This document shows positions 6,001 through 9,000 of a stretch of 24,775 bases of DNA, piece after piece. Source of the stretch: a virus (Duplodnaviria > Heunggongvirae > Uroviricota > Caudoviricetes); the IMG/VR virus record IMGVR_UViG_2541047936_000008, positions 1 through 24,775 of that record; one strand, written 5' to 3'. The first letter of the stretch is position 1. Each line of letters begins with the position of its first letter. The position numbers were made by a program.

Positions 6001-9000
6001 ATGCTGTCACCGATATTTTTAGTAGCACCATCTCCCATAAACCTGCTGGTCTGGGTTGGCTCGCGATCAATCATGGTGGCAAAGGAAGAATTCCCGCCAA
6101 CACCATCTCTCAGTTTTCTGGCGTTAGACCGCCGGATGTCATGGACTGTTTTCATAACGAAATTAAAACCTTTGTACCGATAGGGTACAAGTATCTTGAG
6201 GGTTCATCTCAATCATGTAATATGTATATCGGAGGTACATATTGTATGAAAGCGTATTGGGACTCTTTAACCAAAGAACAGCAGGGCGAGTTGGCCGGAA
6301 AAGTTGGCTCAACACCAGGCTACTTACGGCTAGTTTTCAATGGTTATAAAAAAGCCAGTTTTGTGCTGGCTAAAAAACTTGAGCAATGCACGTCAGGTGC
6401 AATTACGAAATCTGACTTAAGACCGGATATCTATCCGAAAGATTAACAGAACACCTTCAATTTTTAACCACAGAACGATGAGGCTAACCGTGGGTAAGCA
6501 TCACTGGAAAGTAGAAAAACAGCCTGAGTGGTACGTGAAAGCTGTCAGAAAAACTATCGCGGCGTTGCCGGGGGGTTACGCTGAAGCTGCTGAGTGGCTG
6601 GATGTAACAGAGAACGCTTTATTCAACCGCCTTCGTGCAGATGGCGATCAGATTTTCCCGCTGGGATGGGCAATGATTTTACAGCGCGCGGCTGGCACTC
6701 ACTACATTGCGGATGCTGTCGCACAGTCTGCTGGTGGGGTGTTTGTATCGCTTCCTGAAATTGAGGAAGTAGAGAACGCCGATATAAACCAGCGCCTGCT
6801 GGAAGTCATCGAACAGATCGGGAGTTACTCAAAGCAGATTCGTTCGGCAATCGAAGATGGGGTAGTGGAGCCACACGAGCAGACAGCAATTAATGATGAG
6901 TTGTATCTGTCAATTTCGAAGCTCCAGGAGCATGCAGCACTGGTCTACAAAATCTTTTGCGCTCCAGAAAAGAGTGACGCCCGCGAGTGTGCAGCTCCGG
7001 GCGTCGTGGCGTTTTGTGTCTGTGGAGAAACTAACGCATGAACAGTTTAACGGCAAATAACCGTTTGTCGCAACAGCTGGTGGTCAGCGTCGCTGAACAC
7101 CTGTTGTTACGGCATGAATGCAGATTACCAAATCACCTGGCTGTAAGTAACCACAGAGAACTTTACCTGACTGTGGGGGGCGAGTTGTGCAGGAACTTAA
7201 CCGCTGGTTTCGTGACGGAAGAGGACTTTATGTTCATGTTATTCGTTGGGAGCCAGAAACACAGCGCGTTATCTATCTTCGCAAAGACTACCCGCATGAG
7301 TGCTTTAGTCCTTTGTGGAAATTCAGGCGTGATTTTGTTGAGTGTGAAGGACCACCAGCACATTGATTCTGCCATTCCGGGACGTTACACTGTTCAGGCA
7401 CCTTATAAAGCGGGTGCCGGGATTGGCGTCCTGGAATTGATCAAGGCGATATATGACGCGCCAGCGTCTTTTTTATCGTCCGCATTTGCTCACATCAAAG
7501 TTATGGTGGGCTGGGCGGGGGCATCGAAAGATGCGCCGGTTTCCTTGATCACCGGTTACGCCAACCCCGTTCAGTTCACCACCAGCGAAATTGGCGTTTC
7601 CGGTGGTGGAAGTATTTCACCGATCAAGGAGGCTGCCATCATGGCTACTGTCCCAGCCCTCACTCGTCTGAATGATGAAGACTTACATAAACTCAGTTAT
7701 GTAACAACTGCACTACGTGCTCTGCGCAAGGTAACTCTTTCGGATCCGCAGGCACATCAGGTTCTGGTAGAAACCCTTCTTAACTTGCAAGCTGAACGTA
7801 TTCGTCTGGCGGATAAGGCTAATTTTCATATTCACCGTCTCCTGAATATCAGCGGAGGGCATCGTCATGCTTAATCCGTTGCTCCTCAACATTTACCGTT
7901 TATTTCAGCGTAAAAAAATATCAACACCCACAGTTGGGCAGTGGTACACCACGCCAGCAGGGCATGTTCTACGTGTCAGCCTGGTTGACTGTGAATGTCA
8001 GAAGGTGATTTGTGAACCGCTGGGCCGCAATTACCGCGTCAGTATGCCGCTTATTGCCTTTCGCTCCGGAAAAAACATGAAGCATCTCGGAGGTGCAGCA
8101 TGAGTATGGAGCTGATGGTTAAAGCGATGAAAATTCGAGTGGGTAATCCATTGCGAAAACTGGTTCTGATCAAGCTGGCTGATAATGCCAGCGATCAGGG
8201 TGAGTGCTGGCCCAGCTACCAGCATATTGCTGACCAGTGCGAGATTAGCAAACGTTCTGTGATGAATCATATTGCGGCCCTTTGTGATTCCGGGCTGGTA
8301 AAAAAAGTCACCCGGAAAGGTGAAAAAGGTAACTCAAGTAATATCTATCTCCTTCATCTTGATGGTGCAGGAGATTCACTAGGGGGTAGTGCAAATAATT
8401 CACTATCTAGTGCAGCAAATTCACCAGGTAGTGCAGGAGTTGCACCAGGGGGTGGTGCAGGAGATTCACCCAGAACCAGTCACTCTTTTGAACCAGTCAA
8501 AGAACCAGTCAATGAACCAATAGCTGTTGGTGCATCTGCTGATGAGTCCGTGCGAGTTCGTTCAAACCGACCGGAATACTCTCCGGAGTTTGAGCAGGCA
8601 TGGCTGGCATACCCCAAACGTGCTGGTGGCAATTCAAAATCTGCAGCCCTCAAAGCCTGGAAAGCTCGTTTGAATGAGGGGGTAAAACCCGAAACCATGC
8701 TGGAAGGTGTGAAACGCTACGCGGGCTGGGTATCTGCGATGGGTAACAGCGGCACACAATTTGTGAAACAGGCTGTCACGTTCTTTGGTCCGGATCGTCA
8801 TTTCGAAGAATCCTGGGAAGTTCCTGCGGTATCTGCAGCCAGACGCGAGGACCCGTACTTCAAAGCCAGTTACGACAACGTGGACTACAGCCAGATCCCG
8901 GCAGGATTCAGGGGGTGATCATGAGTCTTTTGAATGACGTTCAGAAATTCATTGAAGCCCATCCGGGGTGTACTTCCGGAGACATTGCGGATGCTTTTGC

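Follow-up and report, generated by a model that had tools for sequence, protein, structure and literature searches.

A nested DUF4222 gene and an RNA immunity module threaded by one open reading frame in an SfV/e14-like prophage

Why should a single open reading frame (ORF) of 278 codons, intact and annotated as one gene in a well-known phage, translate over long stretches into a protein sequence of implausible composition? We addressed this question for nucleotides 7038-7874 of a stretch of viral DNA of 24,775 nucleotides (nt) (positions 1-24,775 of the IMG/VR record IMGVR_UViG_2541047936_000008, hereafter the window), a block within the early-right (pR) operon of a lambdoid prophage similar to SfV and e14. 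Shigella phage SfV is 98.7% identical to the window over positions 6400-8200, and many Escherichia coli prophages reach up to 99.8% identity. In SfV the block is annotated as a single gene, orf37, with a product of 278 amino acids (aa) that carries the database label ‘ash family protein’, and in near-identical E. coli genomes the Prokaryotic Genome Annotation Pipeline (PGAP) calls a DUF4222 protein at 7187-7366 and an ash family protein at 7329-7874, leaving 7042-7186 empty. An initial annotation made from the sequence of the window had proposed a third solution, namely several small overlapping genes with one of them in an alternative frame, and both the 278-aa ORF and the alternative-frame ORF, with its 59-aa product as quoted there, were present where it had placed them. 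We found that the block is a composite of a decayed leader, a nested DUF4222 gene, an RNA immunity module and a 77-aa gene, with one frame (hereafter the carrier frame) running without a stop through all four. The odd composition has its cause in this arrangement, as residues ~50-105 are the DUF4222 gene read off frame and residues ~117-200 come from translating two RNA genes. Our best explanation, which we consider probable, is that the composite is combined with a translationally coupled ‘ribosome lane’ that carries translation from pR through the nested gene and past the RNA lock.

A DUF4222 gene in the -1 frame

A bona fide gene, with its own Shine-Dalgarno (SD) sequence and GTG start, occupies the alternative frame. 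Its product matched the Pfam family DUF4222 (PF13973) with 51.1 bits at a cut-off of 27 (E-value 9.5e-14) and phrog_1343 over its full length (E-value 1e-36). The initial annotation had read the GGGGGG at 7175-7180, a gap of 6 nt and GTG 7187 as a strong ribosome-binding site, and these elements were confirmed. When the energies of the duplexes between SD and anti-SD sequences were ranked among the 1398 candidate starts of the window, the start signals at 7187 and at the downstream ATG 7641 (see below) were above chance, as was also supported by the profile match for DUF4222 (energies and ranks in Table 1).

Selection on the nested frame was assessed in 33 loci of different species and about 30 genera (Citrobacter, Kluyvera, Enterobacter, Pantoea, Providencia, Ewingella and others). 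In the overlap, the ratio of non-synonymous to synonymous differences (pN/pS) was 0.25 in the DUF4222 frame (pS 0.66), compared to 1.43 in the frame of the long ORF and 1.68 in the third frame, and the entropies of the three DUF4222 codon positions (0.51, 0.32 and 1.11) showed that variability was concentrated at third positions. An ATG, GTG or TTG start was conserved, with a GGAG-type motif 6-12 nt upstream in most of the 33 relatives, and within the window type the protein was nearly invariant in 38 close variants (pN/pS 0.088). The alternative-frame ORF is thus a genuine gene under selection, as the initial annotation had suspected from its protein-like product. Frame scoring by codon usage, which was noisy in windows of 60 nt, weakly favoured frame 2 at 7230-7350 and frame 0 from 7320 on. 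The AlphaFold model of the product is a small five-stranded barrel with a helix (predicted local distance difference test (pLDDT) score 84.7) that resembles only generic SH3/Tudor/KOW folds, and the protein is accordingly predicted to be a small SH3/Tudor-like beta-barrel.

An alternative explanation is that the DUF4222 frame is entered by a programmed -1 frameshift near 7180, and that a fusion of the leader with DUF4222 is the real product. A ribosome would reach the DUF4222 frame from the carrier frame by a -1 shift, the sequence G GGG GGC lies just upstream, and rare natural fusions of the YmfM N-domain (the counterpart of the leader, see below) with DUF4222 exist (P0212, P0218). However, the start codon and SD sequence of DUF4222 itself are conserved in nearly all relatives, DUF4222 occurs without the N-domain in Providencia, Stx2a phage 12E129 and Hafnia phage yong2, and a frameshift leaves unexplained why the zero frame is open downstream of the shift site. 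Together with the finding that no X XXY YYZ heptamer is conserved before the DUF4222 start in relatives (e.g. TACCGGAGGGCAAAACGCTT), this led us to reject the frameshift, which we regard as extremely improbable.

An RNA module beneath the Ash match

The middle of the long ORF (7363-7632) is a module composed of a promoter, an IsrK-like RNA, a terminator and a C4-like antisense RNA, of which the promoter part is predicted. An Rfam search of the whole window returned nothing besides isrK and C4, both on the strand of the long ORF. The hairpins 1 and 2 of IsrK were 86-91% paired, with double changes. For C4, the minimum free energy was -45.4 kcal/mol (z -4.86), the main stem was 99.9% paired with both sides changed in 10 of 17 pairs, and hairpin 5 was 100% paired with four of its five pairs changed. 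Support for antisense pairing came from the loop a' and the single-stranded segment b' of C4, which are complementary to two sets of target boxes, a1 and b1 within the IsrK part and a2 and b2 downstream of C4, with a2 overlapping the SD sequence of ATG 7641. Across 49 distinct sequences with many pair types, a':a2 was 92-95% paired and b':b2 83-86%, compared to 37-44% when the partner was slid; for a':a1 and b':b1, 97.2% of cells were paired (34-45% with a slid partner), with a covariation of 0.891 compared to 0.19 after shuffling. At least seven target-box sequences were visible in the alignment (GCATACGG is an example from a relative), suggesting that the family holds many immunity specificities.

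The promoter ahead of this module is putative. Its predicted start lies near G7398, the first base of the IsrK match, and its -35 box holds the stop codon of DUF4222. A promoter scan of 6100-8300 reported no consensus promoter; the prediction was made because the pattern TTGAnn-17-TAnnnT is kept (as TACACT, TATAGT, TATATT, TATGCT or TACGAT at the -10 box) in diverged relatives of our RNA-module alignment (A6; 50 representative relatives, 315 nt that reach just past the ATG equivalent to 7641), and because a promoter has been mapped in Gifsy-1 at the equivalent place (see below). In the same alignment, the ATG at 7503, near the 5' end of C4, was invariant; it corresponds to the first AUG of Gifsy-1 orf45.

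These RNA elements coincide with the match to the Pfam family Phage_ASH (PF10554; 67.8 bits), which covers residues 117-210 (nt 7386-7667) and hence the predicted promoter, IsrK and C4. On a proper alignment, no amino-acid-level constraint was found in the Ash stretch (7362-7640): pN/pS was 0.77-0.88 in frame 0 compared to 0.85-1.03 in the other frames, and entropy was flat over the codon positions. The Ash match is therefore the translation of the RNA module, and it evolves under RNA and base-pairing constraint. We also considered Ash as a protein domain with a start of its own, either at the GTG 7329 used by PGAP or, by analogy with phiP27/phrog_3960, at GTG 7344, and rejected it since the SD energies of starts at 7329-7344 were at background (only -2.5 to -3.3 kcal/mol) and protein constraint was missing.

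The same data bear on the view, taken from the SfV orf37 annotation, that a single multi-domain regulatory protein of the ‘Ash family’ is the product of the 278-aa ORF, with the nested ORF and the RNA matches being secondary. This view would agree with a frame that is open in every relative covering it, with the Pfam score of 67.8 bits, and with the many 278-aa database entries named ‘ash family protein’, SfV orf37 being one such gene. However, residues 50-105 have a pN/pS of 1.43 where the overlapping DUF4222 frame has 0.25, the Ash stretch is at ~0.8-0.9 in all three frames without a codon-position signal, and its variation is explained by covariation of RNA stems and antisense targets. Furthermore, the equivalent tail of K-12 YmfM, which lies over DUF4222, is predicted to be disordered (pLDDT < 50), and the halves of the ORF are freely shuffled at the 7641 junction described next. 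We consider a single Ash protein to be very unlikely.

ATG 7641 is very probably a genuine start, as judged from the conservation around it and from the antisense target box immediately ahead of it. The initial annotation had pointed to a perfect ribosome-binding site at this in-frame ATG, and the AAGGAGG (7626-7632, followed by a gap of 8 nt) and the shared phase with 7038 were confirmed. In the 50-sequence alignment, 20 of the 20 columns of the sequence GAGGCTGCCATCATGGCTAC, which spans the SD core, the spacer, the ATG and GCTAC, were invariant or at least 90% conserved; in 28 unique ORFs from the protein-motif collection only three of its positions varied (entropy 0.22-0.37, compared to 1-1.7 bits in the flanks), and the exact 20-mer was present in at least 119 IMG/VR contigs. 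Nearly every synonymous position of the 20-mer is kept, while both flanks diverge. Exactly at this junction, upstream variants and downstream modules have been recombined, the latter being the 77-aa helical module of the window, Rha-family modules of ~120-214 aa (PF09669, E-value 6e-28) and others of 64-89 aa. We read 7641 as the start of a C4-regulated gene and, at the same time, as a joint for module exchange.

By its position, which is that of P1 icd, P4 kil and Gifsy-1 anrP, the 77-aa ORF would be the first C4-controlled gene. No sequence similarity of its product to icd, kil or anrP was found (for P1 Icd and Ant, none by tblastn at E <= 1e-3), and it had no Pfam match. A tblastn search of phages at the same threshold returned only 17 records, of SfV-like, Escherichia and Stx2c phages, and no stand-alone copy of the module was found among phages. 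One related junction (L134:62-376), the only one of its kind, has a stop 10 codons before the junction ATG, and its 89-aa ORF (MATTPAKKHPKS...) stands alone behind a conserved GAGGCTGCCATC, which is consistent with the GAGGCTGCCATC block serving as a translation-initiation region.

With the RNA module and the junction in place, the proposal of the initial annotation can be weighed as a whole. In its purely protein-based form, the block consists of several small protein genes starting at 7038, 7187 and 7641, with no RNA part, and one of them encodes a YmfM-like, SOS-inducible inhibitor of cell division. Good support exists for the starts at 7187 and 7641, and by position the locus is homologous to e14 ymfM, whose expression leads to filamentation (bioRxiv 10.1101/2020.11.19.390815). 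However, this version leaves 7363-7632, demonstrably the site of an RNA module, unexplained, the window has only a decayed YmfM N-domain, and the link of the window products to division is an analogy with K-12; we therefore regard it as unlikely. What stood of the proposal is that the block is not one ordinary gene and that, of its two internal starts, 7187 is genuine and 7641 very probably so; what fell is the assignment of 7363-7632 to protein genes.

Two further features of the RNA module were observed. Between b2 and a2, the GGTGGT core (7603-7608) of a box CCGGTGGTGG (7600-7609) is largely conserved and is complementary to CACCACC, the 3' strand of the closing stem of C4; along with a predicted duplex of the whole C4 with 7587-7660 (-69.6 kcal/mol), this complementarity points to alternative cis structures of the kind described for Gifsy-1 (A/B conformers). 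In addition, some IMG/VR contigs carry IsrK-C4-junction modules in tandem, roughly 400-1300 nt apart (four copies in L232, three in L209 and two in L137), each copy with different a/b specificity boxes.

Table 1. Positions of the features discussed in the text (window coordinates)
Feature	Position	Strand	Details
LexA-like cI repressor	5481-6155	-	
ymfL, CII/CP76-family regulator	6478-7041	+	Pfam PF06892, E-value 8.5e-15; NCBIfam phage_reg_YmfL, 169 bits
Carrier frame (SfV orf37)	7038-7874	+	278 codons, open; threads the leader, DUF4222, the RNA module and the 77-aa ORF
Leader	7038-7186	+	50 codons; decayed homologue of the YmfM N-domain
SD-like GGGGGG of the DUF4222 gene	7175-7180	+	-9.3 kcal/mol, top 1.7%
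DUF4222 gene	7187-7366	+	59 aa; GTG start; -1 frame of the carrier ORF
Putative internal sigma-70 promoter	7363-7391	+	TTGATT 7363-7368, 17-nt spacer, TACACT 7386-7391
IsrK / P4 seqA-like RNA	7398-7474	+	Rfam RF01394, 64.2 bits (gathering score 50), full length
Target b1	7423-7429	+	TTGGCGT; within the IsrK part
Target a1	7439-7446	+	GATCAAGG; within the IsrK part
Intrinsic terminator	7455-7474	+	GACGCGCCAGCGTC then T6; terminator scan match
C4 / P4 CI-type antisense RNA	7499-7586	+	Rfam RF01695, 82.3 bits (gathering score 45), E-value 5e-16, model positions 1-87 of 87
C4 loop a'	7540-7550	+	TTTCCTTGATC
C4 single-stranded b'	7558-7564	+	ACGCCAA
Target b2	7591-7597	+	TTGGCGT
Target a2	7622-7632	+	GATCAAGGAGG; overlaps the SD sequence AAGGAGG 7626-7632
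Near-invariant 20-mer	7629-7648	+	GAGGCTGCCATCATGGCTAC; SD core, spacer, ATG 7641, GCTAC
77-aa ORF	7641-7874	+	SD -11.4 kcal/mol, top 0.1%, strongest in the window; within phrog_4908
orf38	7867-8103	+	78 aa; phrog_1153; SD -10.0 kcal/mol
Replication gene, HTH_36/DnaD_N	starts 8100		

The open carrier frame and its proposed use

Neither the DUF4222 overlap nor the Ash stretch shows amino-acid constraint in the carrier frame, and yet this frame is kept open. It was open in all 78 of the close IMG/VR relatives that cover it (80 were fetched, two of them cut by the contig end), and also in distant relatives. Compared to a randomisation of synonymous codons in 32 unique genes, the carrier frame over DUF4222 codons 1-53 held no stop at all where 69.5 were expected, with a mean probability of an open frame over DUF4222 of 0.056 per sequence, and the third frame, serving as a control, held 113 stops where 111.7 were expected. 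In neighbouring genes of the same loci, the ratio of observed to expected off-frame stops was 0.90, and 41 of 350 stretches of 53 codons were open. The risk sites in DUF4222 are Leu/Val4 before A, Val18-Ile19 and Val28-Ile29, where the codons alternate among CTT, CTC and GTT or between GTT and GTC, and where CTG, GTG and GTA were never seen. Taken jointly, 18 sequences with a pairwise pS of at least 0.5 would all be open with a probability of ~1e-23. The gene for RgdR, a DUF4222 protein encoded in another setting (see below), has seven stops in the corresponding (+1) frame, and the open frame therefore belongs to the genomic arrangement and not to the protein family.

The pattern continues through the RNA module. 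In the 300 nt before the junction ATG of alignment A6, the in-phase frame held 10 stops, confined to two or three of the 50 sequences, compared to 236 and 131 stops in the two remaining frames. The C4 ATG (7503) lay a multiple of three nucleotides (138, 141 or 135 nt) before the junction ATG in 47 of 50 sequences, indels in the module came in multiples of three, large insertions kept the phase, and the variable a and b boxes never made a stop. At the other end, the leader ORF always starts upstream of the predicted promoter, and its first ATG overlaps the stop of the preceding ORF in 82 of 132 contexts. In the window this overlap is an ATGA, in which the ymfL stop TGA (7039-7041) overlaps ATG 7038; the start has a predicted SD duplex of -6.4 kcal/mol (top 7%), and its context ACGCATGAAC was found again in 63 of the 132 related contexts. 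From these data we infer that the 278-codon frame has been selected for staying open, with no constraint on its amino acids. The initial annotation had named conservation of the full 278-aa frame as evidence against nested genes. The frame is indeed open in all relatives that cover it, and the nested genes are not refuted by this because it is kept open without amino-acid constraint.

The e14 lineage, in which the carrier frame has a defined end, provides a further view of the same frame. The gene after ymfL in e14 is, as the initial annotation had stated, ymfM, annotated ‘cell division inhibitor YmfM’ in K-12, and the block is its positional homologue: K-12 ymfM (112 aa) starts at the same ATGA overlap with ymfL (MNSLTTHY... 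compared to MNSLTANN... in the window) and likewise has DUF4222 nested in its -1 frame. In 27 of 34 e14-type loci, the ymfM frame stops exactly 9 nt short of the ATG with which the replication gene begins, whereas the DUF4222 stop lies 11-92 nt beyond that ATG in 30 loci and before it or just upstream in the four others. It is thus the outer ymfM frame, and not the nested DUF4222, that is positioned for termination-reinitiation. K-12 keeps the N-domain and this stop; in the lineage of the window the N-domain has decayed, and the frame, having lost its ymfM stop, extends into an RNA module, which e14 does not have.

One may object that the long open frame is a passive by-product of the conserved RNA and DUF4222, and that translation through them is unselected. 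Given the strong conservation of the RNA genes and of DUF4222, a frame that was open in the ancestor could persist. However, the synonymous sites of DUF4222 are near saturation (pS 0.66) and yet never give a stop, only safe synonyms being used; RgdR does without the open frame; the indels of the RNA module are multiples of three and its variable boxes never create stops; and in those 27 of 34 loci the frame keeps its stop 9 nt upstream of the next ATG. A passive origin of the frame seems quite unlikely to us.

A precedent for translation across such a module exists in Salmonella prophage Gifsy-1 (isrK-orf45-anrP; Hershko-Shalev et al. 2016), in which the isrK promoter has been mapped, orf45 overlies the CI-like RNA (STnc1160) and is translated with its nucleotides but not its amino acids conserved, and translation of orf45 is required for the coupled translation of the antirepressor anrP (PMC4825925). 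Similar to the window, Gifsy-1 is a lambdoid prophage with an IsrK that has its own terminator and an ATG at the 5' end of the CI-like RNA, and its downstream gene is an antirepressor of the kind seen in relatives of the window (Rha modules). In contrast to Gifsy-1, the open frame of the window extends further upstream through the promoter, IsrK, DUF4222 and the leader to the ymfL stop.

Our explanation combines these elements as follows. In a lysogen, the internal promoter would make transcripts that start downstream of the carrier start codon and would therefore go untranslated. Such transcripts would fold and either end as IsrK or yield C4, and C4 would pair with b2 and a2, hide the SD sequence of 7641 and shut the 77-aa ORF, orf38 and replication. 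After induction, pR transcripts would be translated as a coupled chain, from the ymfL stop to ATG 7038 and onward, and ribosomes in the carrier frame would pass over DUF4222, then over the terminator hairpin and C4, and would arrive in frame at the 77-aa gene. Initiation at the blocked SD sequence would then be unneeded and the RNA lock would be bypassed. DUF4222 would be made independently from its own start. In e14-type relatives, which lack the RNA module, the carrier frame corresponds to the annotated ymfM, and the 9-nt geometry from stop to ATG would suit termination-reinitiation. This model would account for a stop-free frame without amino-acid constraint, for indels in multiples of three, for an Ash stretch without an SD sequence, for the ATGA-type start and for the 9-nt spacing.

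Several observations weigh against the coupled reading. The putative promoter matches the consensus at only 8 of 12 positions. By a strict test, the first ATG of the leader shows no stop/start overlap in 50 of the 132 contexts. The replication gene of e14-type loci has its own SD sequence (GAGG or AAGG), and coupling may therefore not be needed there. Openness over the RNA module could in part be inherited from a conserved ancestor. The likeness to Gifsy-1 is also incomplete, since orf45 ends at an AUGA and in another frame, whereas ATG 7503 of the window is fused in phase with 7641 without a stop (ATCATGGCT); moreover, the short IsrK RNA of Gifsy-1 activates translation in trans (PMC4825925), so that the regulatory sign may vary within the family. 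Finally, we infer from sequence comparison the use of the internal promoter, the small RNAs and the translation of the carrier frame in this prophage.

In its widest form, the reading of the carrier frame as a lane holds that this frame is open without amino-acid constraint and overrides the RNA lock, that the same argument applies to Pfam Ash in general and to the tail of e14 YmfM, and, as a corollary, that the division phenotype of K-12 may be that of DUF4222. We put this wider form forward tentatively, as plausible without being probable. In the SfV- and Stx-type relatives that we examined, it is an RNA immunity module that gives rise to the Ash match, and thousands of prophage genes, including those of Stx phages, are labelled ‘ash family protein’ or Rha/Ash regulators. 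If the same were true for other Ash genes, their annotation and the hypotheses on their function would change, and the phages would possess, as a second layer, RNA-based immunity of many specificities. The locus is, in addition, a testable example of a frame selected for openness and a precise end and not for its product; such frames defeat gene callers as well as filters based on the ratio of non-synonymous to synonymous substitutions (dN/dS).

K-12 ymfM, related systems and neighbouring genes

Among type-A relatives, the YmfM N-domain (~56-60 aa) had a pN/pS of 0.33 compared to 1.16 and 1.37 in the other frames, and it occurs on its own in Citrobacter phiNP, a Providencia phage and Hafnia yong2; in a small, loosely aligned set that contains K-12 the value was 0.71. 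The N-domain is a genuine protein segment. The leader of the window aligns in frame with the type-A N-domain and has lost its motifs PVPG, FRYERR and NRWV.CNHSRA. Among the 38 close variants it had many amino-acid polymorphisms (pN/pS 0.47), its codon-usage score was weak, and phrog_1170 matched the window ORF only at residues 48-98, the overlap part. Some related sequences depart from the usual arrangement. P0212 and P0218 (3 and 14 member sequences) are natural in-frame fusions of the YmfM N-domain with DUF4222 of 118-119 aa, and P0220 and P0231 are 63-aa variants with a broken ymfM frame; these fusions and truncations may be real variants or assembly errors. In P0225 and P0242, a decayed leader of the window type (MNSLTANNRLSQQLVVSVAEH...) is joined to a K-12-type tail with a normal stop (102 aa), indicating that leader and DUF4222 types recombine.

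In K-12, an intact 59-aa DUF4222 ORF lies within ymfM of e14 (L003 6002-6181, corresponding to NC_000913.3 1204001-1204180), with a TTG start after GGAGA, and overlaps the start of oweE. The curated record annotates only ymfM, whereas PGAP annotates DUF4222 and not ymfM in ~2000 E. coli genomes, including resequenced MG1655, which makes it ambiguous to which of the two overlapping genes K-12 ymfM/SfiC should be assigned. Cells that express ymfM form filaments, and according to the same source this phenotype had been sought for more than 35 years; frame-specific ymfM mutants are not described in that preprint (bioRxiv 10.1101/2020.11.19.390815). The pBAD24-ymfM clone carries the SD sequence of DUF4222 and codons 1-53 of its 59, and the library clone ymfL'-ymfM-ymfN' carries the entire gene. 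Since all published filamentation clones include the SD sequence and at least these 53 codons, the phenotype may stem from either of the two products, and division inhibition in K-12 may belong to the nested DUF4222 protein.

The components of the block are of known kinds, namely DUF4222, IsrK/C4 immunity and YmfM. We found no paper describing the nesting of DUF4222 in a carrier frame, Ash as an RNA module threaded by a selected open frame, or the ymfM/SfiC ambiguity, and within the literature collection searched none noted dual coding of ymfM and DUF4222.

Compared to the immI locus of P1 and P7 (c4-icd-ant), the window has a C4-family RNA with the same complementarity of a' and b' to a1/b1 upstream and a2/b2 downstream, its downstream target likewise covers the ribosome-binding site of the first regulated gene, and lineage specificity again lies in co-varying boxes. 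P1 and P7 represent two target-box variants, whereas the alignment of the window family holds at least seven. The window module also differs in lying inside a lambdoid pR early operon and not in a separate immI locus, and in being threaded by an open frame in phase into the regulated gene, a frame that was examined in the window family.

Immunity of P4 (seqA-CI-seqC-kil/eta) acts mainly via premature transcription termination, and the late (PLL) transcripts of P4 are not subject to CI immunity. P4 is a satellite and the window element a lambdoid prophage; IsrK of the window corresponds to seqA and C4 to CI, and the Ash match lies exactly over these RNAs. IsrK has been described as a structural homologue of P4 seqA and C4 as a homologue of P4 CI RNA, and similar RNA systems are present in P1, P7 and N15 and in some lambdoid Salmonella prophages (PMC3632133; PMC4825925). 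Pfam PF10554 was named after the ASH protein of P4 and is still called a protein domain of unknown function (bioRxiv 10.1101/2021.11.24.469858); in contrast to this treatment of Ash as a protein domain, the Ash stretch of the window family is without protein-level constraint.

The only characterised DUF4222 protein that we found is RgdR (ECs1581) of the E. coli O157:H7 prophage CP-933C/Sp7, a pleiotropic regulator of LEE1 (type III secretion) and of motility (PMC3378721). Similar to the window protein, RgdR is prophage-borne, carries the DUF4222 domain (E-value 2e-23; 41% identity to the window protein over a 34-aa core) and was missed by one genome annotation. Its gene (L244:13305-13604, Sakai ECs_1581) lies directly upstream of a primase gene with a stop/start overlap, as DUF4222 lies before the replication genes of e14-type loci. 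RgdR differs in its length (99 aa), its N- and C-terminal extensions and its RGD motif, which has been shown to matter for RgdR activity and which the window DUF4222 lacks, R20-G21-D22 being aligned by eye to L4-N5-R6. DUF4222 genes stand directly before replication genes in several prophage types, and RgdR rewires virulence and motility of the host; the function of the family would therefore matter for pathogen biology.

Lambda Rz/Rz1 is a case of a gene embedded out of frame in another gene, with both products functional and acting together. The window shares with it a complete small gene with its own start within another ORF in a different frame of a lambdoid phage. In the window, however, only the nested gene of the overlap is under amino-acid constraint, and the outer frame is apparently selected for openness only.

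The genes around the block follow the order cI, cro/ymfT, ymfL, block 7038-7874, orf38, replication gene, PerC and Dam, and are tightly joined downstream, where the orf38 ATG 7867 overlaps the end of the 77-aa ORF and the orf38 stop overlaps the ATG 8100 of the replication gene. The longest ORF of ymfL begins at ATG 6478, which has no SD sequence (+0.4 kcal/mol); GTG 6490 (-5.6 kcal/mol), the start used by PGAP and in K-12, is probably the true one. The product of orf38 is weakly DUF4222-like (GQWYTTPAGHVLRV...QKVIC...PLIAFR; BLASTP E-value 0.011; hhalign P 5.7e-4 with a reported probability of 29%), and orf38 may be a distant second copy of DUF4222 placed after the RNA module.

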